Source: Candidatus Gottesmanbacteria bacterium UBA6580 (GTDB lineage Bacteria > Patescibacteriota > Microgenomatia > UBA10105 > UBA927). Taken from it: DNA of 64,000 nucleotides. The stretch is taken from NCBI GenBank assembly GCA_002433895.1, contig DJJA01000005.1, positions 3,883 to 67,882 on the forward strand, in the 5' to 3' direction. The first letter of the stretch is position 1; the number at the start of each line of letters is the position of its first letter. The position numbers and the translations under genes are program-made. The notes beneath the pieces were generated by a model. The model ran no database searches. It saw nothing but the letters and a program-made list of their open reading frames with translations, and was not told the DNA's origin. This document shows, in pieces, positions 25,779 through 62,626 of the stretch.

Positions 25779-26423
25779 ATGGCAAAAAAGACACAGAATC
25801 TAAACTCAAGAAAACTGATCTATTTGTTCCTATTTATAGTAATCCTCGGGTTAGGTTCGCTTCTGTGGTACAGAAACTGGCAAAGTAAGTTTGAAGCTCC
25901 CAGACACAATACTCAAATGGTCGAGTTCACTATCAGTAAAGACAAGACTTTGGACACTGTCATTGGCGACCTTCAGTACTACGACTTCATTAAAGACAAA
26001 GAAGCATTCAGATATGCTTTGGAACACGCAAAAGATACGAACCCGGGCAAAGATAGTTCACTAAAGATTGGAAATAATACCATTGATCGAGAAGCGAGAT
26101 ACTCTATCTCCCAAAGTATGACTGCTTGGGAAATAGCTGATGTTTTAGTTAACAAAGGTGAATATAGTCCATGTAATCATGGATGTCCTGATAGCGCATT
26201 TAACCCAGAATTAGTACCCGGTGGAGATTTAGCTCCTACTTTGAAAGAAAAATACTCTTGGGTCAAAACTTACGAAGATTGTACAAAAGCCATTGGTCAC
26301 GACGGTGGTCAACTCTCGTCAGAACAGTATTACCAAAGGACTGGAATAAGACGATGTGTGGCTCCTGACGGACGAGAATTTACAGAGGGTAAAGAGGGCT
26401 GGTCAGATGTTCCTACTCCTTAA
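25779..26423 (+). CDS. hypothetical membrane-anchored protein
   Basis: 214-aa ORF with an N-terminal signal-anchor helix. It converges on, and overlaps by 4 nt, the last gene of the candidate defence operon. It is AT-rich. Confidence 0.35.
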   Translation: MAKKTQNLNSRKLIYLFLFIVILGLGSLLWYRNWQSKFEAPRHNTQMVEFTISKDKTLDTVIGDLQYYDFIKDKEAFRYALEHAKDTNPGKDSSLKIGNNTIDREARYSISQSMTAWEIADVLVNKGEYSPCNHGCPDSAFNPELVPGGDLAPTLKEKYSWVKTYEDCTKAIGHDGGQLSSEQYYQRTGIRRCVAPDGREFTEGKEGWSDVPTP

Positions 26424-27337
26424 AATTTAATTTTTTGAATCTGAGTGCCAATTTGCTTCCAGGCTTCACCAAATTTAAAGAAATTGTCTGGTAAAGAGTT
26501 TTTCGCATATGGATTGTGGACTATAACGAAGTTACTTCCTAATTTATCAGGTTCTCTTGAACTGTTTAAGATATCCCATGGACAGTAGATCACAGCACTT
26601 ATACCTTCGTAACTGGAATCTCTAAACATAAGCATTTCAACTTCACTGCCACTAACCTTATTGAGTTTATCTCTTAAAGTCCAAGTACTTCCTTCTGACA
26701 TTGAATGAGGTGTAGTTCTTTTTAGAAAAAGAACTTGATGACCGATGGCAAAAAGGCACTTAAGTATCAATGGTATCTGCGCATCCATATGTTCCAATGG
26801 CGATCTATCAATCGCTATAATATACGGGTCACTAGAATTAATATGGCCACTTTTTAAATACGATAAGTACTTTTGATGTTTTTCTTTTAATCCTGCCGTA
26901 AGGCGAAATAGCATTTCTTTCTCAGGGACGTCCATTGCTTTACCGTATTCAATTTCTGGAACCCTATCTTTTCCAGCACCTTTTTCTACCGCAATTGCTT
27001 CAATCCAGACAGTACAATTATTATGAAGGATTTTGAAATCAGGACCAGTATCTTTATGTGTCTGTAAGTTATGACCCCTATTTAGTAACGTCGCTCCAAT
27101 GTGTAGCTCCCATGATCGTTGGTTAAACTGCTTTTTAAATTCGTTTGGAAAATTTGAATCGGCGTACGGTTCATATTGTTTCCAAATAGACTCTAACCAA
27201 TTTCTGAATTCTGGACGAGTTGCCATCGTAGCAATGGCAACATACGTAGGGTGGTAGAAATTAAACTTTTTCTTTAGAGCTGCAAGTTGTTTGCTGTTGG
27301 AGGCAACTCCTAGATTTTCATTAAATAGTTTGGTCAT
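26420..27337 (-). CDS. hypothetical protein (component C of the candidate defence operon)
   Basis: 305 aa. Its start overlaps the stop of the 1,225-aa gene by 17 nt, suggesting translational coupling. No confident domain was found. Confidence 0.4.
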   Translation of the reverse strand: MTKLFNENLGVASNSKQLAALKKKFNFYHPTYVAIATMATRPEFRNWLESIWKQYEPYADSNFPNEFKKQFNQRSWELHIGATLLNRGHNLQTHKDTGPDFKILHNNCTVWIEAIAVEKGAGKDRVPEIEYGKAMDVPEKEMLFRLTAGLKEKHQKYLSYLKSGHINSSDPYIIAIDRSPLEHMDAQIPLILKCLFAIGHQVLFLKRTTPHSMSEGSTWTLRDKLNKVSGSEVEMLMFRDSSYEGISAVIYCPWDILNSSREPDKLGSNFVIVHNPYAKNSLPDNFFKFGEAWKQIGTQIQKIKF

Positions 27338-30300
27338 GATTGTTTTCTATCCATTTTTGCTTAACCTCGTAATATTTAGGGTTACGTCTAATCAAAGAGT
27401 CAAATAGATTGTTAATCTCGTCCTTGTGACCTCGTAAAGATACCAATCTTTCAACGGCTCGATCCAAATCATTAGCTATAAGTACAGGTGCTGGATAATC
27501 GGAAAGCTTACTAAAGTAGAACAAAAACTCATCAACACCTTTATGATCTAATACGGTTTCTAATATCATGCCGTTATAGAAAAATGGCCACCAGTATAAA
27601 TCATGGAGTTTATCTTCTGACCAATTTTCTTGGTAATATTTTGATTCTAAGTCAATACATTTAGTCCATAGTTCGTAACAAATTTCAAAGTGATCAGTAT
27701 GATATTCTTCTATAAAATGATAGATGTCATTAAACACATCATGGTCATATTTAGTCAGAAGCATCGTCATATACTTTGACGATAATTTGATGGCGTCTTC
27801 TAAAGTAATAGCTCCTTTTGTTTCGGAACTCTTCTTTATCTCATCAGGTAACCTTTCTAATTGCCAGGCTAATTGTGCTCGAACTTTAGGATTTCCATTT
27901 TTGAGTTGACTCTCTAGTAGGGATTGTATTTTGGTTTGATCAAATTCCTCAAGCGGTTTCCATTGCCATTTGGGGAAGGCGTTTTGTCTGAATAGAGAAT
28001 AATAGATAAAAAGAGGCAGTATCTCCGAAATTACATCTTCATTATCACTTTTTAAGAACATTTGAATAACCTGCAAAGCCTTATCTGTTCCCAGAGTGCG
28101 GATATATGTAAACACCATTGCTAAATGTTTCGCCACCTGATTTAAGCGGATATTCTCATCAGTAAGCATGTCAAAAGCAAGGCGCTCCATTTCTTCTGCC
28201 AATTCTTCTGACACAAAACGTTCATTTGTCTTCCCAGGCAGGTGTGTGTGTCTGTTTTTAACAAGTTCAATCAGAGGTATACAGCCCTCGGCCCGCACAT
28301 AAAAATTTGAATCGAAACAAAGTATCTTTACCAACCTTAAACACTCAGGAATAATTTCTCTTGCGACTAATTGATCGGCTTCACTAAACGGAACTACTAG
28401 TTTTTGTAATGTCCATGCACAATATCCTCTTACTGTTGCCAATTCGGAAACATCATCACCTGAAGAGACTCTCTTGTGTAAATTAGATTCTCCCTTTGGA
28501 TCATCGGATGTGTTTGAACCATCCTTTGGGGGGTCGCTGTCTAAGATAAATATTTTTGTCATCCATAAGGCATCCTTTTTGTGACCGGCTTTGGCTAGTT
28601 TTTCAGCAAATTGAATTAGTGATTCTCTCGCATATCGATAACTAAATCTTTCTTCTATTGGACTGAAATCCTCTTCAGTTAACAAGTCCACTTGTTTCAC
28701 TTTCTTACCAATCAGATTCGAAAGAAGAGGCTTAACAAAGTTTTCAAAAACAAGCTTGAGAAGCTCTGGATTGTTATCATTTGTTTTGTATAGGCTACTA
28801 CATATAAGAATTTGCTGATTCGTGGTCAAATTAGCTTCTTGATTTACAGCATTTAGCAACGCTAAACCCCTATCAAAATTCTCCTCTAGCACACGGGAAA
28901 GTACTCCAGCAACATCATAGGCATCAAAAGTATCTCGCTTGGCTTTAAAATGATCGCTTTGAATATATGACTCAATTAAATCAATACCTTCAGACTTTGA
29001 CTTAGGATTGTTAATTAATTTCAGTGCACTATCAACAGTGTCCAACTCTCCGTAACTATGGCGTTTCTGATACTCAGGGTTGGATGCCCAGCTCTTTAAA
29101 ATCTCAACTGCGTTTTGACGAATTTCTTGATTGTCACTCTTCGCTGCTAAGTCTGAAACTATTTGTTCAACGAAAACATTGACAGGTAGATCACTAAAAG
29201 CTTTCAAACTGACACTTACAAGCTCCCACTTTTGTTCATCACTATAGCTATCGCTGTTTAGCGACTGAAATATTAAATCGTTTTTCCAGGGTATTCCTTT
29301 TCGCATTTTAATAAAGTCGCTTAATATTTCTCTTGCTTCATTAGAATGACTGCCTCCTTTATATTCCTCCAACAAGATTGGAAGTGAAGCTCGGTTAAGA
29401 AAATCAGGTTTTTGTCTTGTAACATCTTCCGTTTGTCGAGCGATGCAGTTTGAAATTACAAACGACCAGCCAACTTCTTTGTCTTTATATAGTTCTTGAA
29501 GTGCGGGAGTTAATATTTTTACGACAAAATGCTTATCTATAATCGAGAATTCATTCCCAGACTGGCCTATTCCTCCTCCCATGTGTTCCCAACCATCAAA
29601 GCTAATCTTCTTATTGAACCTACGGTAATACTTTTGATATTGATTAGAACATTTATCTTTTAACTCAAGTATCCTCTCAGCTGGATTTGCAATTACAAAA
29701 TCAGCTAAAATCTCGAACAGGCTTGGTGGGGTATAATGCCAAAATTTACCGTCGTCTTCTACGATATTAAAATTGCCTAAAATATAATTAACAATTTCTA
29801 CCTTAAGTTGTTGGACTGAACTTTGTTGGTAAATCTCTTTTAAGAACTTTGAGATTTCCTCGCGCTCCCACGAGCTTTCATCCTTTCTTTCAGAGTACAA
29901 GAATTTTTCAATGCGATATGCATATAGACTCTTCAGGATTCTAAATATTCTTTCAGCATATCTATGGTTTTTTTGGAATATATGTTGGCATAGATCGACA
30001 ATATCTTTTTTAATAAATTCTTCCCTATAATAATTAGCTTCATAGTTTTCAATCGCATTTTCGATGAGAGATAACGAATACTCTTGATTTTCTTGTTGAT
30101 CAATATTTTTTTCTAAAACTTTGAACAACTCTAAAGAAAAAGCACCTCTCAATGTGGCTTTCCATAGTGCATCCCAATCAGCTAACTTCAAATTCTCAAC
30201 GCTTTGTAACTTTTGCAGAACAAAATAATGAACAGATGGATTTACTGGCAAGCGGGCTATCTCATTATTAGCCCTATCTCTTCGGGAGTTGTTTTTTAAG

Positions 30301-30998
30301 TTTTTTATTATTTCCTCAACTCTACTTGTTGTAGTTTCTTTCTCTTCTTCGTACTTGTAGCCTGAATCGTCAAAAAATTGGACTTTCTTGTTATTAATTT
30401 TCTCCAAAATTTCCGATCGGGTCACAATCTTACCCTTCTGAGATCCATGATAAATATCATCAACTAATAATTTCTTTGTCCATTCGTTAAGTTGATGCGA
30501 TGGTAGCCAAAAATTTCCACCAATATTTAACACTTGAGCCATCAAAACAAGTATTCCCTTGTCATTTATCTCTTGAGGAACCTCCCAAATCTTTAATCGC
30601 GGGAGGAGTGATATATGCTCATCAGTAAATTTATGTACACTGTTTTTTAATTCTTTTTGTAACCTACCACCAAAATACTTAAAATTCTCAACTGCTCCCT
30701 TAACATCAGGATTAATCTGCTCAGTAATTATTAGTATTTCGTCATTTTTGGAAATTTGTTTATGTTTAGAAATAGTTTCTAAAATCTCACGAATATTATG
30801 CCACTCCAATGGAACGCTCCTATATTTGGATTCACAAATTATCCTTTTCTCATCAAAAACAAGAACAAAATCTTCAAGCTTAGACTGTTCAAGCTCAATC
30901 TGTTTAAAATCGGGTCGGGTGAGATATTGTAAAAACAACGATAGCCCAGCTGCCGCTTGTGCGTTTATTCCTTTAAATGTTGATTTTCCTGATGACAT
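27321..30998 (-). CDS. giant protein (component B): PD-(D/E)xK nuclease-like (Cap4/DUF4297-like) N-domain plus a roughly 1,000-aa HEAT-like repeat array
   Basis: 1,225-aa uninterrupted ORF. The N-terminus (KGINAQAAAGLSLFLQYL … EDFVLVF … ICESKY) is paralogous to the upstream 289-aa protein. The C-terminal two thirds hold repeated xxVRxxAxxxLxxL-type HEAT signatures (NFYVRAEGCIPLIELV, NPKVRAQLAWQLERL, ATVRGYCAWTLQKLV). No Walker A motif is present. Confidence 0.5.
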   Translation of the reverse strand: MSSGKSTFKGINAQAAAGLSLFLQYLTRPDFKQIELEQSKLEDFVLVFDEKRIICESKYRSVPLEWHNIREILETISKHKQISKNDEILIITEQINPDVKGAVENFKYFGGRLQKELKNSVHKFTDEHISLLPRLKIWEVPQEINDKGILVLMAQVLNIGGNFWLPSHQLNEWTKKLLVDDIYHGSQKGKIVTRSEILEKINNKKVQFFDDSGYKYEEEKETTTSRVEEIIKNLKNNSRRDRANNEIARLPVNPSVHYFVLQKLQSVENLKLADWDALWKATLRGAFSLELFKVLEKNIDQQENQEYSLSLIENAIENYEANYYREEFIKKDIVDLCQHIFQKNHRYAERIFRILKSLYAYRIEKFLYSERKDESSWEREEISKFLKEIYQQSSVQQLKVEIVNYILGNFNIVEDDGKFWHYTPPSLFEILADFVIANPAERILELKDKCSNQYQKYYRRFNKKISFDGWEHMGGGIGQSGNEFSIIDKHFVVKILTPALQELYKDKEVGWSFVISNCIARQTEDVTRQKPDFLNRASLPILLEEYKGGSHSNEAREILSDFIKMRKGIPWKNDLIFQSLNSDSYSDEQKWELVSVSLKAFSDLPVNVFVEQIVSDLAAKSDNQEIRQNAVEILKSWASNPEYQKRHSYGELDTVDSALKLINNPKSKSEGIDLIESYIQSDHFKAKRDTFDAYDVAGVLSRVLEENFDRGLALLNAVNQEANLTTNQQILICSSLYKTNDNNPELLKLVFENFVKPLLSNLIGKKVKQVDLLTEEDFSPIEERFSYRYARESLIQFAEKLAKAGHKKDALWMTKIFILDSDPPKDGSNTSDDPKGESNLHKRVSSGDDVSELATVRGYCAWTLQKLVVPFSEADQLVAREIIPECLRLVKILCFDSNFYVRAEGCIPLIELVKNRHTHLPGKTNERFVSEELAEEMERLAFDMLTDENIRLNQVAKHLAMVFTYIRTLGTDKALQVIQMFLKSDNEDVISEILPLFIYYSLFRQNAFPKWQWKPLEEFDQTKIQSLLESQLKNGNPKVRAQLAWQLERLPDEIKKSSETKGAITLEDAIKLSSKYMTMLLTKYDHDVFNDIYHFIEEYHTDHFEICYELWTKCIDLESKYYQENWSEDKLHDLYWWPFFYNGMILETVLDHKGVDEFLFYFSKLSDYPAPVLIANDLDRAVERLVSLRGHKDEINNLFDSLIRRNPKYYEVKQKWIENNHDQTI

Positions 30999-31000
30999 AT

Positions 31001-31867
31001 TTATTCTGTTAAACTTCTATTTGCTATTGGTAAAGTTGGCTGACGAGTCCACCATTGATTGAACTTAGATTGAACAACCGTTTTGATTTCACCTTTTTTC
31101 TGCTCTACTGCCGTAGGCCTCGGGTAATGCTCACTAAATAACTTTCGCATAGTAATATATTCGATAAGCGAGTCCTGGATTATAGGAACAACATCCTCCC
31201 CACTGCCTGACATCCTAACTAGGTGATATAAAAGATTGTGAAATAGAATTTCCTTGGGATATTCATAGTTGGTGGAGTCTGCTCCAAGTTCACTGATTAA
31301 ACTTTCAATTTCCTCTAAAATTAACCCCTCCAGCTGAGGATCATCTGGAGACTGAAGCGTATTACAATCTGCCGGAAGATCTTCGATCTTAATTTGGGAG
31401 CAAAAAACATGAACACTTCTCTGGTCGGGGAATACTTCTTCTTCATGATTTAGTTTATCCATTAACCATTGAGCTGAATTATGTGCTCTATCTGAATTTA
31501 GTATTTTGTACCTTCGTAGAATCGTCAAATGGCTCCAGTATTCCGAAATTGTAGGCAGGTATCCATGATTCATATATAAGTGTAGCTTAACTGTGGGAAA
31601 CGAAATACCATAAGTATGCAAATCAAGCATTGAACTGGCGATTTCCACCTCATCATCCTTAAACGTTTCACCAGTTTTAATCTCATAGACTTTTTCTTCA
31701 CCGCCAACCCTTGTTAGCAATCGGATATCCAATGATTTTTGGTCAGCTAGAGGATAATCGACGAAAAATGAAGTAAGATTTCTGGACCTAAAGTGTTTCA
31801 AAAACAAATATAATGCAACCTTATCTTGGTAATGGAATCCTTTTCTGGTAGCAAATATTGTTGACAT
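31001..31867 (-). CDS. PD-(D/E)xK nuclease-like (Cap4/DUF4297-like) protein (component A)
   Basis: 289 aa from the ATG at 31867. The N-terminus (RKGFHYQDKVALYLFLKHF … LDIRLL … EEKVYEIKTGE) carries D-(hydrophobic)n … E-x-K motifs and matches the N-terminus of the 1,225-aa protein. Its stop lies 2 nt from the start of the next gene. Confidence 0.45.
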   Translation of the reverse strand: MSTIFATRKGFHYQDKVALYLFLKHFRSRNLTSFFVDYPLADQKSLDIRLLTRVGGEEKVYEIKTGETFKDDEVEIASSMLDLHTYGISFPTVKLHLYMNHGYLPTISEYWSHLTILRRYKILNSDRAHNSAQWLMDKLNHEEEVFPDQRSVHVFCSQIKIEDLPADCNTLQSPDDPQLEGLILEEIESLISELGADSTNYEYPKEILFHNLLYHLVRMSGSGEDVVPIIQDSLIEYITMRKLFSEHYPRPTAVEQKKGEIKTVVQSKFNQWWTRQPTLPIANRSLTE

Positions 31868-31868
31868 A

Positions 31869-32051
31869 TTATCGATTGAGTAGCTTAAGAACTTCTTCTT
31901 TATTGTATTTTCTATCCTTACGTGCCCCAAACCTCACGGCCTTGAGAATACCCTTCTTGTCCCACTGCCTCAGGGTATTGGGGTGAACTTTGAGGAGCTC
32001 ACAGGTCTCCTTCATTGTCAGTAGTTCTGGTAATTGCGTGTCTTTTTTCAT
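31869..32051 (-). CDS. AlpA/excisionase-family HTH DNA-binding protein
   Basis: 60 aa (…LLTMKETCELLKVHPNTLRQWDKKGILKAVRFG…), an HTH_17-type prophage regulator. Its stop lies 1 nt from the start of component A. Confidence 0.6.
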   Translation of the reverse strand: MKKDTQLPELLTMKETCELLKVHPNTLRQWDKKGILKAVRFGARKDRKYNKEEVLKLLNR

Positions 32052-32108
32052 TGTCTAATAACCTACCATTTGATACTATTACCATACTAGAAATACCTTA
32101 AATTTACA

Positions 32109-32942
32109 ATGGAAGACAAATATATCCTTACTAGCAAAAACTTTGAAGACTGGCGAAACTATTTATTGGTTAATAGCTTCTTTTTTGATGTGTTGATGAG
32201 AATAATACGACGTGATCTTGGTCTTCCAGAGAATGGCATAAAAGATCTAGAGGAAATGATTCGCTGGGACGGAGAAAGGAAAGATCAAGTTAGACGAAAA
32301 ATTACCCCCACCTCAAAGCGTAAAAAGACCGGAGTTCAAACGGTCAAAGAAATATTTGCCATTGAGGATGAGGTGAGGCGAAAAGCATACCCACAAATCT
32401 GGGAAGCTATCGAAAAGTTTGCTGATTTTAACTTAGACTTTTCACTACTCCACACCTTTGTCTTGGGTAATACAAGAATATCGTTTGGTGGAAGCTCGAG
32501 GGTTTTAATGGTTACATCCCCAAATGATCCAATTCAAGAAACTGGTGTATATATCAAATATTCTCCCGAGCTAAGCGAAAAAGACATCATTGCATTAATC
32601 AAACAAGCACGTGAGTCGTACGAGTCGTTGTTTAAATACAGACACCCATCCGAAAGGACACATGATGAAAATGGTAAGCCGTATATCAAACGTCCGAAGC
32701 TAAAAGTTCGCCAAAGGAAAGTGTCCCAACCAACCAAAGAACAGCTAAAAATTTTCGAGTCAGTAGAAAATTGTCTAAAAGAAGATTATTCCTCCAGAAC
32801 CGATTCGATAAAAATGCAAGTTGTTTTTGAACTGGTTGCCACCAAATTAAAGAAAAATATGAACTCGGTTCAGCGAACATACCACGCCATTTTGAGAAAC
32901 TACAATTTACCTACAAGTGTCGATACCCGCAATATTTTCTAA
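32109..32942 (+). CDS. hypothetical protein (phage-associated)
   Basis: 277-aa basic protein divergently transcribed from the HTH gene. No motif recognised. Confidence 0.3.
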   Translation: MEDKYILTSKNFEDWRNYLLVNSFFFDVLMRIIRRDLGLPENGIKDLEEMIRWDGERKDQVRRKITPTSKRKKTGVQTVKEIFAIEDEVRRKAYPQIWEAIEKFADFNLDFSLLHTFVLGNTRISFGGSSRVLMVTSPNDPIQETGVYIKYSPELSEKDIIALIKQARESYESLFKYRHPSERTHDENGKPYIKRPKLKVRQRKVSQPTKEQLKIFESVENCLKEDYSSRTDSIKMQVVFELVATKLKKNMNSVQRTYHAILRNYNLPTSVDTRNIF

Positions 32943-33009: not shown

Positions 33010-34344
33010 ATGTCAAAAGTATCTATACAAACAGTTGAAGTTCCAATCAATGAATTGGTTCCAGCAGACTACAACCCACGAAAACACGATGAGACTGCTA
33101 CTGAGCAACTGAAACAAAGCATTCAACGATTTGGGTTGGTTGATCCAATAATCGTAAACTCCGCCCCGAGTCGTAAAAATATTATCATCGGTGGGCACTT
33201 TCGCTGGGAAGCAGCCAAGGAATTAGGGTTTGAGACTGTCCCCGTGGTCTTTGTTGATATTCCAGATTTAGATAAAGAAAAGGAGCTCAATCTCCGCCTC
33301 AACAAAAACACAGGAGAGTTTGATTGGAATCTTCTCGCAAAATTTGATGAATCGTTACTCTCCGAGATTGGTTTCTCTAGCGACGAACTCGATTCTATTT
33401 TTGATCTTGATATCGAACCAGAGAAATTCGATCTGGAAAAAGAACTACAAAAGCTGAACATCCAGAGTATAAACACCAAAAAAGGAGATATCTATGCTTT
33501 GGGTAATAGTCGTCTGATGTGTGGCGACTCCACAGTTGAAGAAAACATATTAGCTCTCATGAATGGGGAGAAAGCGAATATGTGTTTTACTGACCCACCC
33601 TACATCCTCGACTACTTACATGGGAAGAAAAAACATGGAAGTGCAGTAACAGGCTTTGGGGCAAAACGTGACCGCAGATACTTGGAAACAGATGTTCTAC
33701 CGCCCGACTTTACTGAAAAATGGATGAGTAATATTGCCAAAATCCAAAATGAAAGTTTCAGCATCATTGTTTATGAAAATTGGAAGAACCTTCGCACAAT
33801 TTGGGGTGAGATGGAGAAGCATTGGAAGGTCAAAAACATGATTGTTTGGCACTTGCCCAATCGCCATCAAGGGTTTTCCGCCAAGTATAAATTCTTTTCA
33901 AAACATGACATTGCTATGGTTGGGGCAAGCCCAGACAAAGATGTTGAGTTCAACATGGAGCCAGAAGCAGACGGTCTTCAAGAGGAGTACGAAACCGCTC
34001 TATATGCCATTTCCGGCAAGCCACAATGGGAAGGTTATCAAAAAGGCAAGAAAAACCAACCAACTGATCATATCGAGTATGTAGCGTCCGACGAAAAACA
34101 TTCTGGTCAAGGAATTATCTTTGGTACAAAACCAATTGAAATCCTTATTCCTTACATCAAAGTCCTAACTAAACGCGGTGACCTAATAGTTGAACCTTTC
34201 TCAGGTAGTGGAAGCACGTTAATTGCGTCAACCAAAATGAAACGCAGGTGTTACGGAATGGAAAAGTCTCCCGTTTATGCGGAAGTCATCATTAAACGTT
34301 GGGAAAAGATAACGGGACAGAAAGCAAAGAAAATATATGGATAA
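33010..34344 (+). CDS. ParB-like nuclease domain / DNA (N6-adenine or N4-cytosine) methyltransferase fusion
   Basis: N-terminal ParB/Srx-like region (…LVPADYNPRKHDE…GLVDPIIVN…GGHFRWEAAKELG…), then MTase motif IV DPPY (CFTDPPY) and motif I (FSGSGST). This is an architecture typical of phages. Confidence 0.75.
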   Translation: MSKVSIQTVEVPINELVPADYNPRKHDETATEQLKQSIQRFGLVDPIIVNSAPSRKNIIIGGHFRWEAAKELGFETVPVVFVDIPDLDKEKELNLRLNKNTGEFDWNLLAKFDESLLSEIGFSSDELDSIFDLDIEPEKFDLEKELQKLNIQSINTKKGDIYALGNSRLMCGDSTVEENILALMNGEKANMCFTDPPYILDYLHGKKKHGSAVTGFGAKRDRRYLETDVLPPDFTEKWMSNIAKIQNESFSIIVYENWKNLRTIWGEMEKHWKVKNMIVWHLPNRHQGFSAKYKFFSKHDIAMVGASPDKDVEFNMEPEADGLQEEYETALYAISGKPQWEGYQKGKKNQPTDHIEYVASDEKHSGQGIIFGTKPIEILIPYIKVLTKRGDLIVEPFSGSGSTLIASTKMKRRCYGMEKSPVYAEVIIKRWEKITGQKAKKIYG

Positions 34345-34756
34345 CACAATTGAAAAACGCCAAATCAAAAACAAAGAATTATTGTTGGAGCAACTCAAAA
34401 AGACTCCAGTGGTTCAGATTGCCTGTGAGAAAGCAGGAGTCGGCAGAGCTACTTACTATCGCTGGCGTAAGGAAGATCCAGAATTTACTAAAGCTAGTGA
34501 CCAGGCATTGCTAGATGGCAACCTCCTTGTGAATGATATGGCTGAAAGCCAAATGATGAGCGCTATCAAAGATAAAAATATGACGGCTATTATTTTTTGG
34601 CTCAAGCACCATCACCCAGCCTATGCTACCAAAATAGAAATCACTGCCACAAATAAGAACCAGGATATCGAACTCAGCGATGAACAAAAAGCGTTATTAA
34701 ACAAAGCCTTAGAAATGGTGGCATTGATGCCGCCAGAAAACGAAAACCATGAATGA
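34337..34756 (+). CDS. terminase small subunit-like HTH protein
   Basis: 139 aa with an N-terminal HTH (…VVQIACEKAGVGRATYYRWRKEDPEFTK…). It overlaps both the MTase gene and the large-terminase gene. Confidence 0.45.
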   Translation: MDNTIEKRQIKNKELLLEQLKKTPVVQIACEKAGVGRATYYRWRKEDPEFTKASDQALLDGNLLVNDMAESQMMSAIKDKNMTAIIFWLKHHHPAYATKIEITATNKNQDIELSDEQKALLNKALEMVALMPPENENHE

Positions 34757-36281
34757 CCATCAAGAAATCATTAAATTAGTCCAGATTGACTCTAATTTTA
34801 GAAGAGCTTTAACTCGGGAAAGTTTTTCTTGGTTTTTCATTACCTACTTCACCCATTACATAACTTGTCCGACTGCGCCCTTTCAGAAAGAGATATTTAA
34901 CCTCCTGCAAAATGATGGGTTGTTAAAGGTAGCGGTAACAGCTTTTCGAGGTTCGGCAAAATCCACTATTGCCAGTCTCGCATATCCAATCTGGGCAATG
35001 GTTGGTAGACCCGCCAAGAAATATACATTAGTAGTCAGTCAAACTCAGGATTTATCAAAACAAATACTGACCAACATTAAACAGGAGCTTTCATCAAATG
35101 AATTATTAATTCGAGACTTCGGACCTTTTAATGAAGTGGCTGATGAGTGGCGATCTAATTCATTCGTGATTCCTCAATTTAATGCTCGTATTTCTGCCAT
35201 CTCTCAAAGCGAAAGCATTCGAGGTTTACGTCACTACCAATATCGACCAGATTTAATCGTCATTGATGACGTTGAGGATTTGGAATCAGTTAAAACCAGA
35301 GAGGGTCGAGACAAGGTATGGAATTGGTTTACAGGCGAGGTTATGCCTATCGGTGATCTTAATACCAAGATAGTCATTATTGGCAACCTCTTACACGAAG
35401 ACTCTCTCATGATGCGACTTAAGGAAAGTATTAATAATGGAAAAATGGATGGAGTTTACAAAGAGTATCCACTGCTTGATAAAAATGACAATATCGCTTG
35501 GCTGGGTAAATATCCTTCGATGATGCATATAGAAACCAAACAAAGACAGGTAGCTGATGAATCTGCCTGGTATCGTGAGTATTTGCTTAAGTTTATCTCT
35601 GACGATAAAAGAATTGTGCAAAGGAGTTGGCCACAATTTTATGATAAGTTGCCAGATCTACGACATTATCGAATTTTAGGCATTGGAATTGATTTGGCGA
35701 TATCGGAGAAAAGTAGTGCAGATTTTACCTCCCTTGTTCCCTTTATTGTCATAGGCTATGGGGATGACCTAAAAATATATATCCTTCCATATATCGTAAA
35801 TAAGCGAATGAACTTTCCCGATACGATTTTAGAAATTAAAAGAGTTAGTGCCGTTTTAGAACAAGACTACAAACGAGTACCTACGGTTTTAGTTGAAAAT
35901 GTAAGCTACCAAATGGCAGTCGTTCAACAATTAACTATTGAAAAAATATTAGCAGAACCAGTTGCGATATCCGGCATGAATAAACAGACAAGGTTAGAAA
36001 TGGCCACGCCATATATCAGACAAGGTAAAGTTCTGTTCCCACAAAAAGGTGCAGAGTCTCTCATTAGTCAAATCGTAAATTTTGGCATCGAAAAGCATGA
36101 CGATCTGGTTGATGCATTTACCATAATCGTTTTGAAAGTCTTGCAGTCTGACAGACCAACCTATAAATCAAATGGCCCTACCGAGCCACCAAGGGATCGT
36201 TGGGGAATAGATCCATTCACTGGAGAGTACCGAAACTTAGACGCACCCATCACCGCAGGGATGTGGGGTAAAAGATTTTAA
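34749..36281 (+). CDS. phage terminase large subunit
   Basis: 510 aa. It has a Walker-A-like AFRGSAKST, an ATPase-coupling region (…LIVIDDVED…), and a C-terminal RNaseH-like nuclease region (…GIGIDLAISEKSSADFT…). Confidence 0.7.
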   Translation: MNDHQEIIKLVQIDSNFRRALTRESFSWFFITYFTHYITCPTAPFQKEIFNLLQNDGLLKVAVTAFRGSAKSTIASLAYPIWAMVGRPAKKYTLVVSQTQDLSKQILTNIKQELSSNELLIRDFGPFNEVADEWRSNSFVIPQFNARISAISQSESIRGLRHYQYRPDLIVIDDVEDLESVKTREGRDKVWNWFTGEVMPIGDLNTKIVIIGNLLHEDSLMMRLKESINNGKMDGVYKEYPLLDKNDNIAWLGKYPSMMHIETKQRQVADESAWYREYLLKFISDDKRIVQRSWPQFYDKLPDLRHYRILGIGIDLAISEKSSADFTSLVPFIVIGYGDDLKIYILPYIVNKRMNFPDTILEIKRVSAVLEQDYKRVPTVLVENVSYQMAVVQQLTIEKILAEPVAISGMNKQTRLEMATPYIRQGKVLFPQKGAESLISQIVNFGIEKHDDLVDAFTIIVLKVLQSDRPTYKSNGPTEPPRDRWGIDPFTGEYRNLDAPITAGMWGKRF

Positions 36282-40891: not shown

Positions 40892-41566
40892 ATGAGAATA
40901 CTTGTCGTCGAGGACGAACGCCGGCTATCTACCGTTATTAAAAAGGGCTTTGTCGAGGATGGATTTGCAGTCGATCAGGCATTTGATGGTGAAGACGGGC
41001 AGTTTTTAGCTGAAAGCGAGCAATACGACCTCATTGTCCTTGATATCATGCTTCCCAAGGTTGATGGTCTCACCCTTTGTAAAAATATCCGTGCAAAAAA
41101 TATAAAAACCCCGATTTTGATGTTAACTGCTAAATCCTCTACAGACGACAAAGTGGCCGGTCTTGATAGCGGTGCGGATGACTACCTTACCAAACCATTT
41201 TCCTTTGTCGAATTCCGCTCGCGTGTCCATGCACTAATCCGAAGAAGTCATCAGGAGACATCGCCTGTACTTGCAATCGATGATCTCGAACTTAATCCTC
41301 TGAAACACTCAGTTTCTCGTAAAGGAAATCCTCTAAAATTGACCCCGAAAGAATTCGCAATTTTAGAGCTTTTACTTCGTCACAAAGGTGAAGTCGTTAC
41401 CCGTACCATGATCACAGAACACGTGTGGGACTATAATTTTGATGGCATGAGTAACGTCGTTGATGTGTTTGTTGCGTCGCTCCGTAAAAAAGTAGATGCC
41501 AAAGGTAAAAAGAAAATTATTGAAACTGTCCATGGAGTAGGCTTTAGAATAGGTAGCGCTGTATGA
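40892..41566 (+). CDS. OmpR/PhoB-family response regulator
   Basis: Receiver domain (…DLIVLDIMLPKVDGL…) and a winged-helix C-terminal domain (…LTPKEFAILELLLRHKGEVVTR…VHGVGFRI). Confidence 0.9.
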   Translation: MRILVVEDERRLSTVIKKGFVEDGFAVDQAFDGEDGQFLAESEQYDLIVLDIMLPKVDGLTLCKNIRAKNIKTPILMLTAKSSTDDKVAGLDSGADDYLTKPFSFVEFRSRVHALIRRSHQETSPVLAIDDLELNPLKHSVSRKGNPLKLTPKEFAILELLLRHKGEVVTRTMITEHVWDYNFDGMSNVVDVFVASLRKKVDAKGKKKIIETVHGVGFRIGSAV

Positions 41567-42975
41567 ATACAAAAAGTCTCCGGTTCCGCGTGAGTGTGTG
41601 GTATACCTCCATTTTTTCCTTTGCGATGGCAATACTTTTTGTATCCTTCTATTTCTTAACTCAGCAGTCGCTTCTGTCTCATACAGACGGTGCAATTACA
41701 TCACATACTGAACGTATTGTAGAAATTATCGGTCAGGAAGACGGTAATTCGATGGATGCTTCATTTGTAAACAATAGTCAAGCGTTTGCCCATCAGTTTA
41801 CAGAAATGCCGGGAATGGTACTTATCATCGGAGATCCCTTTGGCAAGATTCTGTATTCTTCACAAAGTTTAGGTGGCAACGAGGCAGTTGCTGAGGTGCT
41901 ACTTGAAAAGTCTGCAAACATTATCAAGCCAACATTCGTCAACCGTACAATTGGTGGTAGTACTGTTCGACTCGGCGTATTTCCTGCTAGAAGAAGCGAT
42001 GATGGGAAAGTGCTTGTCATTATGGGGCAGCCCATGGATGTCATTCAAAATTCCCTAAATACGCTTGCAATAACGCTTTCAGTTGTCTATGCAGGAGTTT
42101 TTCTCTTAAGTTTGCTTGGAGGGATCATTATTGCCGGAAAAGCCATGAATCCAGTTGCGGCCATGTCCCGCGAGCTGAAGAAAATTAGTGCCGAAAACCT
42201 TGATGAACGCATGCCAAATCCCAAAACAGGTGACGAACTGGAAGAACTCTCGCAAACGTTTAACGGTCTTCTAGACCACCTACATGATGCTTTCGCGCGT
42301 GAACGACAGTTTATTGGTGATATGGCACATGAGTTGAAAACCCCTCTTGCAACCCTTAGGAGCAGTATTGAGGTAACTCTGACAAAAGCCAGGACGAATG
42401 ATGATTATAAAAAAGCATTTGCCGATACTTTGATAGACGTAAACCGCTTATCTCAAACGGTTAAGAATATTTTAGATTTAGCCTGGATTGGTGCAGAAAA
42501 TGCCCACACAATGAAAGAACCTGTTAATCTTTCAACTCTTGCGAAAGACTTGCACGAGATAGCCGAAAAACTGGCGGCAGAAAAGAAAATATCTATTTCA
42601 GCATCCATAGCATCCGGCGTTACCGTTGAAGGAGTTGAAGATAAAATATTTCGGGCGCTTCTCAATATTATAGATAATGCAGTGAAATACACTCCTGCAG
42701 GTAAATCGGTATCGTTATCGTTAAAGAAAAATAAACATCATGCCTTTTTTGTTGTAAAAGACTCGGGAGTTGGCATTTCAGCAGACGAGCAACAACATAT
42801 GTTTGAGCGTTTCTACCGGGGAGCAAAAACTGCACGAACGGTCGGATCCGGCTTAGGGCTTGCCATTGCTCACGGTATAATCAAAGCACATCTGGGAGAT
42901 ATACAAGTGAGTAGTAAACCCGGACACGGTACTATCATGACCATCGTACTTCCCCTCGCAAAATTGCAATCTTAA
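41563..42975 (+). CDS. sensor histidine kinase
   Basis: Two TM helices flank a periplasmic sensor domain of about 120 aa. It has a HAMP region, an H-box (DMAHELKTPLA) and N/G boxes (…DNAVKYT…DSGVGI…GSGLGLAI…). A 4-nt overlap with the RR gene indicates coupling. Confidence 0.85.
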   Translation: MNTKSLRFRVSVWYTSIFSFAMAILFVSFYFLTQQSLLSHTDGAITSHTERIVEIIGQEDGNSMDASFVNNSQAFAHQFTEMPGMVLIIGDPFGKILYSSQSLGGNEAVAEVLLEKSANIIKPTFVNRTIGGSTVRLGVFPARRSDDGKVLVIMGQPMDVIQNSLNTLAITLSVVYAGVFLLSLLGGIIIAGKAMNPVAAMSRELKKISAENLDERMPNPKTGDELEELSQTFNGLLDHLHDAFARERQFIGDMAHELKTPLATLRSSIEVTLTKARTNDDYKKAFADTLIDVNRLSQTVKNILDLAWIGAENAHTMKEPVNLSTLAKDLHEIAEKLAAEKKISISASIASGVTVEGVEDKIFRALLNIIDNAVKYTPAGKSVSLSLKKNKHHAFFVVKDSGVGISADEQQHMFERFYRGAKTARTVGSGLGLAIAHGIIKAHLGDIQVSSKPGHGTIMTIVLPLAKLQS

Positions 42976-43029
42976 CGATTTCTTCATACCTTTTGATCTA
43001 CTGTAGAAGTACCTTGAAAAGGAGGTATA

Positions 43030-49813: not shown

Positions 49814-49892
49814 TGTAAAGATATGAATCTTAACGATTTCTTCATACTTCGCTTTCTATACTGAGATATTGGTATTAAAAGGAGGTATCGGT

Positions 49893-55922: not shown

Positions 55923-55984
55923 AAGCTAAAATTTATTGGCAAATCTTCATAAAATCTTCATAGCTTGCCTTGTATGCTCTAACA

Positions 55985-57802
55985 ATGAGTAAACAAAAAA
56001 TTCACATACAAGGCATGCATTGCCGCTCGTGCGAGATATTAATCGAGGACGAGTTGAGTAAGGTTAAAGGGGTTAAGAAAGTCTACGTCAACCACAAGAC
56101 AGGGGTTGCTGATGTTGACTGTGAGTGTGAGCTTGACCAAAACGAGGTCGCTACAGCCGTTCAAAACGCTGGCTATGTCGTCGGTGAAGACGGCAAGATG
56201 CCACTCATCTCCAAAAACCGCAAGGATTATATTGACTTAGGAATTGCCTTTTTTATAACCGTTGCTCTCTATTTTGTTGCCAAAACGCTTGGGATATTTG
56301 ACCTTGGCAAATCCATTACCGGTGGCAATTATTCCAGCTTACCTGTTGTCTTTATCGTTGGCTTAACTGCCGGAGTATCTACCTGTATGGCCTTGGTCGG
56401 TGGACTCGTGCTTGGTGCCGCCTCCCGCTTCTCGGCGAAGAATCCGCGAGCTACAGGCATGGAAAAATTTACGCCGCATATCTACTTTAACCTAGGGAGA
56501 ATTGCCTCTTATTTTGTTTTAGGTGGCGCACTTGGATTCTTAGGATCAATATTCCAGTTATCTACCTCAGTCCTAGGCATGCTCACAGTAATTGTCGGTT
56601 TAGTCATGCTCCTTTTGGGTGGCCAGCTTATAGACATATTCCCATTTCTCAAGCGCGTGTCATTTACCTTGCCAAAAGGTATCAGTCGCGCTTTAGGCAT
56701 AAAGGAACAGTCTGAACTCGAGTATAGCAATACAAACTCTGCAATTATGGGTGCCTCCACATTCTTTTTGCCCTGTGGTTTTACCCAGGCTATGCAGCTC
56801 TTTGCCATGAGTTCTGGAAGTCCTCTTACCGGTGCCCTGACTATGGGAGTATTTGCTCTAGGCACAGCTCCCGGGCTACTGGGAGTCGGTGGCTTAACTT
56901 CTGTCGTAAAAGGAAACGGTGCAAAACTGTTCTTCAAGACAGCAGGAGTAGTAGTCATACTGCTTTCACTCTTTAACATTACCAATGGTCTTAATCTCTT
57001 GGGGGTTACGCCTGAAGTTTTAGGTGCCTTCACGACTAAGGCAGCGGCAGGTAATACCGTAAATGATCCAAACGTCAAAATGGTTGGTGGCGTCCAGGAA
57101 GTGCGTATGACCCAAGCCTCCGGAGGTTATAGCCCCAACAAGTTTACAATCCGGAAAGGCATTCCTGTCAAATGGATCATTACATCCAAAGACATATATA
57201 CCTGTGCAGCAAGTATTGCCTCTCAACAGCTTAATATTAGAAAAGGTTTGCAGCTTGGAGAAAACGTCTTTGAATTTACTCCCAAAGAAACAGGCACGAT
57301 CCGCTTCTCGTGCTCGATGGGTATGTATACCGGATCATTTACTGTCGTCGATGATAAAGAATCAGCCGGTGCTACTCAGCAAACAACGTTAGCAAACACA
57401 CAAACGCAAAACTCAGGATCAGCAGGATCCTGCAGTGCGGGAGGATGTGGTTGTGGAGGTGCAGCTAAAAAGGCAGCCGCCCTACAAAATAACAACGAAC
57501 CTGCGACGAAACCTATTACCCAGGGAAATGTACAGGTCATCAAAGCAACGTATACCGCCCTTGGTGATATTTCACCCAATACCTTTACCGTCAAAGCCAA
57601 TCAGCCGGTAAAGTTTGAAATTCTATCGAAAGACAATGGTGAGGGCTGTATGGGGAGTGTAGCCGTTCCAAACTTAAGTAAAAAAGTAGAAATGCTTACC
57701 AAAGGGGAAACAACCACCTTTGAATTTACACCGACCTCAACTGGTACCTATCCCATTACCTGCGCCATGGGAGTACCTAGGGGTCAAATACAAGTTATTT
57801 AA
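55985..57802 (+). CDS. HMA-domain / polytopic membrane / 2× cupredoxin-like fusion protein
   Basis: N-terminal HMA with GMHCRSCE; a membrane domain with TM-embedded Cys (…VSTCMAL… and …FFLPCGFTQAM…); a Gly/Cys-rich linker; and two C-terminal beta domains ending …FSCSMGMYTGSFTVV… and …ITCAMGVPRGQIQVI. Confidence 0.45.
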   Translation: MSKQKIHIQGMHCRSCEILIEDELSKVKGVKKVYVNHKTGVADVDCECELDQNEVATAVQNAGYVVGEDGKMPLISKNRKDYIDLGIAFFITVALYFVAKTLGIFDLGKSITGGNYSSLPVVFIVGLTAGVSTCMALVGGLVLGAASRFSAKNPRATGMEKFTPHIYFNLGRIASYFVLGGALGFLGSIFQLSTSVLGMLTVIVGLVMLLLGGQLIDIFPFLKRVSFTLPKGISRALGIKEQSELEYSNTNSAIMGASTFFLPCGFTQAMQLFAMSSGSPLTGALTMGVFALGTAPGLLGVGGLTSVVKGNGAKLFFKTAGVVVILLSLFNITNGLNLLGVTPEVLGAFTTKAAAGNTVNDPNVKMVGGVQEVRMTQASGGYSPNKFTIRKGIPVKWIITSKDIYTCAASIASQQLNIRKGLQLGENVFEFTPKETGTIRFSCSMGMYTGSFTVVDDKESAGATQQTTLANTQTQNSGSAGSCSAGGCGCGGAAKKAAALQNNNEPATKPITQGNVQVIKATYTALGDISPNTFTVKANQPVKFEILSKDNGEGCMGSVAVPNLSKKVEMLTKGETTTFEFTPTSTGTYPITCAMGVPRGQIQVI

Positions 57803-57825
57803 CGAAAGGAATTATATGAACACAC

Positions 57826-58022
57826 AAACATTTACATTAACCGGCCTAACTTGCCCAGCCTGCAAAAAGATAACTGAAAAACGAATCGGTTCGCTTCCCG
57901 GAGTGACGCACGTCGAAGTGACAGTTTCGAATGGTTCTGCCCATGTGATGTCCGAGAGTCTTATTACAAACGTACAAATCAACGAGGTATTGAAGGATAC
58001 CCCGTATTTTATAGAAGGATAA
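57826..58022 (+). CDS. copZ: copper chaperone CopZ (HMA domain)
   Basis: 65 aa with [14 protein letters not shown]…GV, the MxCxxC-type HMA fold. RBS GAAAGGAAT upstream. The ORF track extends it upstream to 57720. Confidence 0.7.
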
Positions 58023-58026
58023 ACAT

Positions 58027-61000: not shown

Positions 61001-61176
61001 GCTACGATGAAGCCAAGATCATGACCGATGAGAAACTCTTTACCAAAGAGGGTGATACCATTAAAGGCTTCTTTGGAAATGATGTGATCGTGTCCGGTAT
61101 CCTCCCCGATACCAATACGGCCTACGACACCTATCACTTCGTCAAACCTGGATTTGAAATCAAAAAGATGGACTGA
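58027..61176 (+). CDS. copA: copper-translocating P1B-1 ATPase with two N-terminal HMA domains and an extended C-terminus
   Basis: GMHCQSCE and [11 protein letters not shown] motifs, [31 protein letters not shown]. There is an extra hydrophobic segment plus a tail of about 130 aa after the last canonical TM helix. Length 1,049 aa. Confidence 0.9.
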
Positions 61177-61270: not shown

Positions 61271-62626
61271 TTGTACCCTGAAATGAGTACAAAGTACAAC
61301 CAGAATTCAACGATAGAACCACCAAAAATAGAATACTGTCTCTATGCTCGCAAGTCGTCAGAGTCGGATGAACGACAGGCAATGTCCATCGATTCTCAGA
61401 TTGACGAGATGCTTACATTAGCGAAGCGAGATAATCTCAAAATTAAGGAGGTTAAAAAAGAAAGCCACTCGGCAAAGATGTCAGGTTCTCGGCCAGTATT
61501 TACTCAACTCCTCCAAGAAATACGCCAAAAGAAGTTCAATGGAATCTTGACTTGGGCACCAGATCGATTGAGCCGTAATGCTGGCGACTTGGGATCAGTA
61601 GTCGATCTCATGGATCAGGGGAAGTTGGTAAAGATACAAACTTACTCTCAGAGTTTTACAAACAGTCCAAACGAAAAATTCCTCTTAATGATTCTATGTT
61701 CACAGGCAAAGTTAGAAAATGACAACAAAGGATTAAATGTTCAGCGAGGTTTGCGAACGAAGTGTTCAATGGGATGGAGACCAAGCATTGCTCCCGTAGG
61801 ATATCTAAATCAAGCTGGTGATGGTCACAAGGACGAACTAATCATTCTCGACCCCGACAGAGCTTCATTTGTCACTCAAATGTTTGAAAGGGTGGCAAAT
61901 CAAGGTCATAGCGGTAGGGCGATTAAACATTGGCTAGACAGAATAGGATTTAAAACTAGGAATGACAAACCAATACCTTTGAGTAAGGTTTATTCAACAC
62001 TTAATAACCCATTCTATTATGGTGAATTTGAATTCCCTGTAGGCAGTGGAACTTGGTACCAAGGTAAACATACGCCACTCGTGACAAAAGAACTTTTCGA
62101 TAAAGTCCAAGCTGTTTTACAAACAGTCCCGAAAGGCTACAAGAACAAGATTTTTCCTTTCAAAAGTATTTTTAGATGTGGTGGGTGTGGAGGTGGAGTA
62201 ACCGCCGAAGAAAAGATCAGGAAACTAAAACATGGTGGATACACCAAACACACTTATTACCATTGTGGCAGATCATTAAATTATGAATGTGATGAGCCAT
62301 ACATTACCGAAAGCGATCTCATAAAACAATTAATCGTCAATATCGACAAAATCAAATTTAATAACGCTGGAGTGTCACGAAAAATCCAGGAAGATATCGA
62401 GAGATATCACCGTCTCAAGTCCCAAGTCCTACATCAGGAATTTTTAGATGGTCACTTGGGAGAATATGAAAGAATTCCTAAAAGCACAGCCGACAAAAAC
62501 GATATGACAAAAAACTATCTCCTCCATATCCTCCAAGTGGGGACGGCTGAGGAGCGACAAGAGGCACTCACTTTCATCAAAACGAAGTTTATTCTGACAA
62601 ATAAAACGATAGTTATCCAGAAATAA
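61271..62626 (+). CDS. large serine recombinase (integrase)
   Basis: N-terminal resolvase catalytic domain (…CLYARKSSESDERQAMSIDSQ…), a recombinase domain, and a zinc-ribbon (…CGGCGGGV…YYHCGRS…). Length 451 aa. It sits next to a tRNA. Confidence 0.8.
   Translation: MYPEMSTKYNQNSTIEPPKIEYCLYARKSSESDERQAMSIDSQIDEMLTLAKRDNLKIKEVKKESHSAKMSGSRPVFTQLLQEIRQKKFNGILTWAPDRLSRNAGDLGSVVDLMDQGKLVKIQTYSQSFTNSPNEKFLLMILCSQAKLENDNKGLNVQRGLRTKCSMGWRPSIAPVGYLNQAGDGHKDELIILDPDRASFVTQMFERVANQGHSGRAIKHWLDRIGFKTRNDKPIPLSKVYSTLNNPFYYGEFEFPVGSGTWYQGKHTPLVTKELFDKVQAVLQTVPKGYKNKIFPFKSIFRCGGCGGGVTAEEKIRKLKHGGYTKHTYYHCGRSLNYECDEPYITESDLIKQLIVNIDKIKFNNAGVSRKIQEDIERYHRLKSQVLHQEFLDGHLGEYERIPKSTADKNDMTKNYLLHILQVGTAEERQEALTFIKTKFILTNKTIVIQK

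Follow-up and report, generated by a model that had tools for sequence, protein, structure and literature searches.

The characterised defence nucleases of Cap4 type, namely Cap4, LmuA, HamA, DUF4297 and Avs3, are all switched by a nucleotide-binding partner, be it a SAVED domain, a structural maintenance of chromosomes (SMC) protein, a helicase, HerA or a STAND ATPase. In Avs3, the roles are divided among a nuclease, a STAND ATPase and a terminase-binding repeat region that acts as the sensor. The pairing of a nuclease with a nucleoside triphosphatase (NTPase) is a widespread design (bioRxiv 10.1101/2025.07.10.664194). PD-T7-1 and PD-T7-5, on the other hand, are single-gene systems recovered in an E. 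coli pangenome screen (Vassallo et al. 2022, PMC9519451), and later surveys class both as PD-(D/E)xK/RmuC-like nucleases. Here, we analyzed a stretch of 64,000 nt (hereafter the window) from Candidatus Gottesmanbacteria bacterium UBA6580 (contig DJJA01000005.1), which carries on its minus strand a compact block of four genes: a small helix-turn-helix (HTH) gene followed by genes A, B and C. The original prediction, made from the sequence alone, treated A, B and C as one undescribed three-gene anti-phage system. Comparison of homologous loci reveals that the conserved unit is an exchangeable gene, lying in what we term the A slot, together with B, and not A-B-C, while C belongs by its sequence to the PD-T7-5 family.

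The A slot and protein B

In total, 91 non-redundant B loci were analyzed, 85 of which were evaluable for the A slot. An open reading frame (ORF) on the same strand abuts B in 77 of these 85 loci, and in 45 of the 77 it overlaps B by 4 or 8 nt. The genes occupying this slot fall into four families which, judged from their sequences, are mutually unrelated. The largest is Schlafen/AlbA_2-like (34 loci; Pfam 1.3e-16 in L009), followed by a Cap4-like family that includes A of the window (25 loci; L003 lies above the Pfam threshold). The other two, of ~200 aa (11 loci, e.g. L005, L012, L018 and L027) and ~370 aa (5 loci, e.g. L029, L039, L092 and L105), are unclassified; neither Pfam, nor PADLOC, nor the sequences of the PDB contain a match to them. 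The ~370-aa family shows a G-x-D...E-x-K motif of Mrr-like appearance, with D37, E54 and K56 invariant, and the ~200-aa family a GKD...IK motif, suggesting from these motifs that both may be nucleases. Kinship between these two families was considered and rejected (hhalign probability 0.1%). As to the Schlafen-like family, a 2026 paper (PMC13462974) describes prokaryotic Schlafen proteins as cleaving tRNA in type III CRISPR immunity.

The exchange of partners is sharply delimited. Different A-slot families sit beside B N-terminal domains that are 82-94% identical, and the DNA homology between such swapped pairs starts no more than 7 nt from the B start codon. The downstream side of B shows no comparable order: among the 48 loci with sequence available there, 16 have no adjacent gene and the genes of the other 32 fall into 23 unrelated clusters, including the housekeeping genes TspO and MreD. 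The conserved A-B-C synteny anticipated in other genomes was not observed, as the A slot and B are kept and C and the HTH gene are not. A C homologue is found in only two of the 91 B loci, the window and L076, and in the latter it stands on the upstream side of B; on this count, C was ruled out as a constant partner of A-B. The HTH gene was likewise rejected as a conserved partner of A/B, since a homologue upstream of B recurs in a single other locus (L092, 78% identity).

The N-terminal domain of B (residues 1-215) yielded an AlphaFold2 model with a mean predicted local distance difference test (pLDDT) score of 86.1 and a predicted template modelling (pTM) score of 0.81, displaying the alpha-beta-beta-beta-alpha-beta core of PD-(D/E)xK enzymes. 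Two independent fold comparisons agree; in one of them, Foldseek placed the model next to the Hachiman nuclease (8zue_A, E 4.1e-7, template modelling (TM) score 0.70) and Cap4 (6wam/6vm6, ~5e-7), with further matches to LmuA (9nxx/9hr5) and HerA-DUF4297 (9c1m). Residues E37, D43, E56 and D86 are invariant in family alignments of 40 and 63 sequences, while K58 is invariant in the former and kept in at least 90% of the latter. With both the modelled fold and the catalytic triad in place, this domain belongs to the Cap4/DUF4297 branch of the PD-(D/E)xK superfamily, and the Cap4/DUF4297-type assignment originally proposed for it proved correct. Its PDB relatives can be reached by fold comparison only, not by sequence profile: profile searches of the PDB with full-length B, the B N-terminal domain, A, C and the two unclassified A-slot families returned designed alpha-repeat proteins only.

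The remainder of B is of an entirely different nature. In the AlphaFold2 model of residues 1-1200 (pLDDT 86.3, pTM 0.65), residues 216-1200 consist of helices, save for a few short strands of 2-5 residues (478-488, 919-927). Foldseek retrieved for this body only generic eukaryotic HEAT solenoids (CAND1, SF3B1, karyopherins, MMS19 and Pds5B) at TM ~0.2, and in Pfam B gave sub-threshold HEAT_2/HEAT matches and none above threshold; NCBIfam, PADLOC and PHROGs returned zero matches for B. The body is presumed to be a sensor or scaffold. The model of residues 1-1200 contains no alpha/beta NTPase domain, and a Walker A motif is absent from HTH, A, B and C; the single occurrence among 85 B homologues is a chance match. 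The earlier statement that the operon has no P-loop and no SMC, STAND or CD-NTase partner therefore holds, as confirmed by library scans, the Walker A scan and the B model.

Along the body, five motifs are invariant or nearly so: GWEHMGGGI (~468-476), KPDFLNRA (~530-537), RKGIPxK (~566-572), NQQI (~727-730) and DPDP (~820-823). The body also holds many invariant basic residues, among them R536, K572, R791, R857 and R1004. Conservation of this kind, which extends to the glycine-rich loop GWEHMGGGI, is unusual for a passive repeat scaffold and suggests a ligand or nucleic-acid binding site.

The B family comprises 85 full-length homologues of ~1,150-1,260 aa with 26-61% identity. It was found in 20 of 185,579 species-representative genomes and on 92 metagenome contigs. 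By their labels, the genomes belong to Shapirobacteria, Doudnabacteria, Giovannonibacteria, Parcubacteria, Saccharibacteria and WWE3, and further to Margulisiibacteriota, Elusimicrobia, Armatimonadota and metagenome-assembled genomes (MAGs) labelled Gammaproteobacteria; additional homologues occur in MAGs of Heimdallarchaeaceae and Halobacteriota. The family is mainly one of Patescibacteria and some archaea.

Protein A is probably a stand-alone Cap4/DUF4297-like PD-(D/E)xK nuclease, a remote member of the superfamily. Its own matches are a Pfam Cap4_nuclease hit at E 0.19 and a PADLOC LmuA hit (PDLC03848) at 7.4e-5 over residues 8-193. A word-based homologue search found only 4 relatives, and an exhaustive hidden Markov model (HMM) search was required to recover a family of 96 cluster representatives, nearly all of 290-310 aa. 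In a 69-sequence alignment of this family, Q14, D47 and K64 are invariant, at least 90% of the sequences keep G10, Y13, D37, S45, E62 and G66, and 8 of the 69 members match Pfam Cap4_nuclease, at up to 4.4e-5.

The original prediction described A and the B N-terminus as clearly paralogous. At the pairwise level, this did not hold, as BLASTP gave E 0.015 over 26 residues. At the profile level the kinship stands: hhalign of A against the B N-terminal domain gave 71% probability (E 3.8e-5), with GFxYQ/GINAQ, D47/D43 and E62xK64/E56xK58 aligned in register, and A against the Cap4-positive A-slot group gave 76%. The strongest link between A and B is provided by P0237, a natural fusion of 1274 aa (L113:998-4822). 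Its residues 4-256 are of the A type (E 9.6e-27) and the remainder aligns with B residues 291-1216 (E 1e-123), so that an A-type head replaces the N-terminal domain of B itself. The locus has no separate A-slot gene, and a NERD nuclease gene lies downstream. The same body can thus bear either an A-type or a B-type nuclease domain as its head.

Comparison with described systems

Among the systems with repeat sensors, Avs3 (SeAvs3, PDB 8dgc) is the one with which B shares the order of an N-terminal effector nuclease followed by a long C-terminal repeat region. In Avs3, a central STAND ATPase drives tetramerization, whereas B has neither a Walker A motif, nor an alpha/beta NTPase domain, nor a STAND match in Pfam. 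Moreover, Avs has no adjacent partner gene, in contrast to the adjacent, swappable small gene of B, and no sequence homology between Avs3 and B was detectable outside the nuclease.

With Cap4 of the cyclic-oligonucleotide-based anti-phage signalling system (CBASS), in which a DUF4297 nuclease is joined to SAVED (PDB 6vm6/6wam), B has the nuclease fold in common. A SAVED or CARF sensor was not detected, as there is no Pfam or PADLOC match, the rest of B is all-alpha and A has only 288 aa; a CD-NTase is absent among the four genes and their neighbours. Neither the operon nor its surroundings hold SAVED/CARF or a CD-NTase, so a cyclic oligonucleotide is not expected to activate the system. Lamassu differs in its SMC-like ATPase LmuB and its kleisin-like LmuC: the operon has no SMC/ABC ATPase match, and no LmuB/LmuC-type gene occurs in the B loci whose flanks were examined for Pfam families. 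The mode of variation is also different, since in Lamassu the effector varies as the N-terminal domain of LmuA, whereas here the whole upstream gene varies. The nuclease fold is shared with Hachiman too, where the superfamily-2 helicase HamB is the partner of HamA, and no such helicase partner accompanies B; nor was a HerA/DUF87 match, as expected for the HerA ATPase of HerA-DUF4297, found in the operon of the window. In both of these systems the partners are NTPases, whereas that of the B nuclease is a fused, non-enzymatic solenoid. A partial survey of the literature on HEAT or alpha-solenoid proteins in connection with Cap4, DUF4297 or anti-phage defence contained no description of this architecture.

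Protein C could be matched to a described system directly. PADLOC aligned its residues 29-252 with model positions 14-233 of 346 of PD-T7-5 (PDLC04110, 9e-22), an output for which no curated cut-off is given, and PD-T7-1 (1.1e-13) and phrog_8571 (3.9e-28) were matched as well. A negative PADLOC result had been expected for the locus, and this expectation failed with the PD-T7-5 match. By sequence, C is a member of the PD-T7-5 family and is predicted to be a PD-(D/E)xK/RmuC-like nuclease. Like PD-T7-5 and PD-T7-1, it is prophage-borne and found as a self-contained gene. Its kinship to these two is distant, its source is an uncultivated bacterium with a small genome, and its overlap with the end of B is not a described arrangement. 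More than 200 homologues were found, including distant plasmid ones annotated as hypothetical, and in all three contexts examined (L030-L032) they occur without A or B. Thus, C appears to behave as an independent module that is probably co-transcribed with B here. The reading of A-B-C as an undescribed three-gene system is contradicted both by this family membership and by the occurrence of C in just the two B loci mentioned above.

In two of the related contexts (L030:2847-5918 and L031:3428-5930), the same pair of genes, encoding a 319-aa protein and a 203-aa HNH_5 protein, precedes the C homologue, with an extra 190-aa gene between them in L030. The PD-T7-5-like gene may have recurrent partners of its own in these elements.

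The HTH protein matched PADLOC mad1 (3.7e-9), while the NCBIfam model MADS1 scored 17.1 bits against a cut-off of 80. This likeness reflects the generic HTH_17/excisionase fold and does not make the block a MADS system; A, B and C matched no NCBIfam model, including any present there for MADS components.

Gene block and prophage-like setting

A single nucleotide separates the HTH stop from the A start, 2 nt lie between A and B, and B and C overlap by 17 nt, just as originally reported (Table 1). The gene first given as 289 aa is present as A, with a length of 288 aa from its ATG. The longest ORF for A would use a TTG start at 31930 and run into the HTH gene, and the ATG is favoured because homologues open with MSTIF.... 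Support from homologues is available for B (85 full-length sequences), C (more than 200) and A (96 cluster representatives in the profile search). The block has the appearance of a single transcription unit, as first proposed. A consensus scan of the block for promoters and terminators gave counts no higher than those in shuffled sequence, which leaves spacing as the basis of the single-operon reading. Ahead of the HTH gene, a divergent region of 57 bp is the sole sizeable non-coding stretch and the sole possible promoter site upstream of the block. The HTH protein, of MerR/excisionase type (Pfam HTH_17 3.3e-10, MerR_1 5.1e-9), is probably a local regulator.

Table 1. Positions of the block, its domains and motifs, and the adjoining genes in the window
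Feature	Position	Strand	Remark
Gene C	26420-27337	-	305 aa
Gene B	27321-30998	-	1225 aa
B body (residues 216-1225)	27321-30353	-	all-alpha HEAT/ARM-like solenoid (model)
B body motifs	~29400-29600, 29290-29410, 28810-28820, 28530-28540	-	from family alignments
B N-terminal domain (residues 1-215)	30354-30998	-	predicted Cap4/HamA/LmuA-type PD-(D/E)xK nuclease
B catalytic motif codons D43...E56-S-K58 (EDFVLVF...ICESK)	30825-30872	-	predicted; counted from ATG at 30998
Gene A	31001-31867	-	288 aa counted from ATG
A catalytic motif codons D47...E62-x-K64 (SLDIRL...YEIK)	31676-31729	-	putative; counted from ATG at 31867
HTH gene	31869-32051	-	60 aa; first gene in block
Divergent intergenic region	32052-32108		57 bp between HTH gene and 277-aa gene
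277-aa gene	32109-32942	+	divergent from HTH gene; no Pfam or PHROG match
ParB-N/N6_N4 methyltransferase	33010-34344	+	phage-type; phrog_498 1.1e-86
Small terminase	34337-34756	+	PHROGs
Large terminase	34749-36281	+	phrog_38 1.7e-81

The surroundings of the block agree with what the original prediction had noted, an AT-rich island beside phage genes. The GC content is 0.33-0.39 over 26-32 kb and 0.37-0.44 in the rest of the AT-rich island, as against ~0.43-0.54 in the host-like left part of the window. The methyltransferase and the two terminases, identified through PHROGs, are the prophage-like backbone that flanks a cargo slot. In a related element (L030), the ParB-methyltransferase is 76%, the small terminase 59% and C 69% identical to those of the window. 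Between the methyltransferase and C, this element carries genes for proteins of 244 aa, 319 aa and 190 aa and a 203-aa HNH_5 protein; C is kept, and the 277-aa gene, HTH, A and B are replaced by these other genes. The comparison therefore marks the region as a cargo hotspot in which C is the steadier resident and HTH-A-B one among several exchangeable inserts. The 277-aa gene is variable cargo as well, because it is not conserved in L030, and it could be linked to the HTH-A-B insert.

As to the defence-island context proposed for the window, the block itself occupies a variable cargo slot, and B homologues sit in defence islands in the loci whose flanking genes were examined. In 27 of 60 evaluable loci, the 4 kb upstream of the cassette include a gene in the same orientation for a type IIG restriction-modification (R-M) enzyme, combining endonuclease and methyltransferase; in 18 of the 60, this gene directly adjoins the A-slot gene. 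These enzymes are full-length (~1,050-1,230 aa; e.g. L037, L081, L056, L013, L028, L033, L089 and L069), match PADLOC REase_MTase_IIG (PDLC03596) at up to 1.8e-273 and the Pfam families Eco57I, N6_Mtase, MmeI_Mtase and TaqI_C, and the association spans the three larger A-slot families. It may represent a functional link, of the guard or accessory kind, or a recurrent island arrangement. Type I R-M genes take the same upstream position at other B loci. The window copy does not fit this commonest form of the cassette, with a type IIG enzyme upstream of the A slot, as tblastn revealed no such enzyme in the whole 64 kb. Further neighbours of B homologues include GmrSD, Shedu-type SduA_C, Vsr, Bsp6I R-M and a KAP NTPase, and some homologues lie beside conjugation genes (TraG, a type IV secretion system pilin, relaxase and resolvase).

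A distinct arrangement was noticed in a Heimdallarchaeaceae locus (L005:8067-10575), in which the pair of B and a PDDEXK_1 gene is followed by BpsA_C and AdoMet decarboxylase genes of polyamine type, then by genes of the 7-deazaguanine (preQ0) pathway, namely GTP cyclohydrolase I, PTPS/QueD, a QueE-like gene of the radical-SAM type and QueC; carbamoyltransferase and glycosyltransferase genes come last. The group may represent a cluster for DNA modification resembling Dpd.

Several observations concern the remainder of the AT-rich island and its right-hand side. A large serine recombinase (61271-62626, phrog_95, 3e-60) adjoins a tRNA-Lys(ttt) gene (62803-62875), and the two are the probable integration module of the element; a search near the left border of the island (~26 kb) for an attachment (att)-type direct repeat matching the end of tRNA-Lys gave nothing convincing. 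Inside the island, a perfect 22-nt direct repeat, AATCTTAACGATTTCTTCATAC, is present at 42968-42989 and 49826-49847 and brackets a 6.9-kb segment of mostly minus-strand genes, so that the two copies may mark the ends of a nested insertion. Also inside the island, at 40892-42975, genes for 224-aa and 470-aa proteins overlap by 4 nt; the latter matches a kinase PHROG (phrog_10912) and the former, weakly, a transcriptional-regulator family, and the combination resembles a two-component regulatory pair brought along as cargo. A 28-nt repeat that would encode a GMHC..C-type metal-binding motif occurs three times (56006, 58051 and 58495) in a pair of large ORFs (610 and 1,049 aa) at 55970-61176, which are probably heavy-metal P-type ATPases. 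As these ORFs lie between the island and the serine integrase, the element may reach that far, or the island may be composite.

Interpretation and rival explanations

Combined, the block is read here, with moderate confidence, as a composite of two independent defence modules behind an HTH regulator, carried as cargo by the variable end of a prophage-like element. Module 1, formed by A and B, would be a rare NTPase-free two-gene nuclease system, and module 2, C, a PD-T7-5-family nuclease that defends alone. In module 1, the solenoid would serve as sensor and scaffold and hold the nuclease silent. Binding of an invader cue by the solenoid would then bring nuclease domains together, in B-B and/or B-A contacts, and the assembled domains would cut DNA, whereby the invader is destroyed or the infection aborted. 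The cue might come from a phage protein, as it does in Avs3; a restriction enzyme inhibited nearby is another possible trigger, and the A slot would add to or diversify the output. It is plausible that the A-slot/B unit represents a variant of Cap4-type nuclease defence in which the NTPase-free control and the swappable partner would be the new features. A defence function of this unit appears well supported by the sequences and their context, and we infer from the same material the anti-phage function, the trigger, the oligomerization, the contact between A and B and the substrate.

Several findings weigh against this interpretation. B gave no match among 2.9 million IMG/VR viral contigs, 50,697 phage records (INPHARED) and 72,556 plasmid records (PLSDB), and thus neither in viral contigs nor in the collections of isolate phages and plasmids. 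The assignment of A depends on the weak Pfam, PADLOC and hhalign matches given above, and 8 of the 85 evaluable loci have no A-slot gene. No C-terminal docking motif common to the four A-slot families was found, and A-slot proteins could therefore act independently of B. Known Cap4-type nucleases are under a ligand sensor or an NTPase, and switching by a passive solenoid would be unprecedented. Since the solved relatives of the nuclease are all under a nucleotide-binding partner, the missing NTPase is therefore both the main novelty and the main mechanistic gap. In addition, the 17-nt overlap of B and C leaves room for functional coupling to C, and PD-(D/E)xK genes recur downstream of B elsewhere: a Cas4-like PDDEXK_1 gene follows B in L005, L009, L033, L038 and L045 and stands two genes downstream in L003, and a NERD gene lies downstream in L026 and L113.

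These last two points belong to a rival explanation, according to which HTH-A-B-C is one integrated multi-nuclease system with C as an obligatory component. The tight junctions indicate that the genes are co-transcribed and possibly translationally coupled, and close relatives of A, B and C share contigs, as on one of 6,377 nt (P0086, P0093, P0307) and another of 186,170 nt (P0002 and P0113). Nevertheless, the C family greatly exceeds the B family in size and is present where A/B are missing, it is almost never found at B loci and, where it is, may lie on the other side of B, the genes downstream of B are not conserved, L030 retains C after HTH-A-B has been replaced, and the family is counted among the single-gene defences (Vassallo et al. 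2022, PMC9519451). We consider an integrated system quite unlikely. Slightly better placed, though still unlikely, is a reading in which A-B would not stand alone but be an accessory or guard module of R-M enzymes: the solenoid would bind the R-M enzyme, and the nucleases would be freed when a phage anti-restriction protein disables it. The copy in the window would then be an orphan or be wired in another way. An analogue is offered by the anticodon nuclease PrrC, embedded in a type Ic R-M locus. The frequent type IIG enzymes upstream of the cassette, their abutment on the A slot, their spread over the three larger A-slot families and the type I R-M genes in the same position all speak for such a role. 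However, 33 of the 60 evaluable loci, the window included, have no such enzyme within 4 kb, tblastn detected none anywhere in the window, and some adjacency should arise by chance, because no systems are more common in defence islands than R-M.

Least probable, in our estimation, is that the cassette serves the mobile element itself, in addiction or exclusion, as a weapon used on rival elements or in DNA processing, or that B is a housekeeping scaffold. The position of the window copy inside a prophage-like element beside terminase genes, the conjugation genes next to some homologues and the generic use of HEAT solenoids as protein-binding scaffolds are compatible with this proposal. Against it stand the absence of B from IMG/VR and from the phage and plasmid records, the patchy distribution of the family and the rapid swapping of partners, which are typical of defence and not of housekeeping, and the strictly kept nuclease triad, which favours catalysis over pure scaffolding. 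Because element-borne defence and exclusion overlap, service to the element is only partly a rival to the composite-cargo interpretation.

For annotation, the composite-cargo interpretation means that gene C should be named a PD-T7-5-family defence gene and that the block should not be counted as one three-component system. The exact swapping of four unrelated genes at the B start codon constitutes a natural experiment in effector modularity, and the frequent position behind type IIG enzymes hints at layered or guard-type immunity. More tentatively, and with somewhat less than even confidence, the A-slot/B cassette can be proposed as a candidate new immune class, an NTPase-independent pattern-recognition nuclease in which the solenoid would respond to a phage component or to the condition of a neighbouring restriction enzyme and at least four unrelated plug-in genes would diversify the output, and which would rank as a main innate defence in Patescibacteria and in some DPANN, Asgard and halobacterial archaea. 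If this is true, the family would represent a different way to control a dangerous nuclease, without an NTPase. The bacterial and archaeal lineages just named have few recognised defence systems, and the B family is concentrated in uncultivated small-genome lineages of a kind that discovery screens in E. coli and Bacillus miss.

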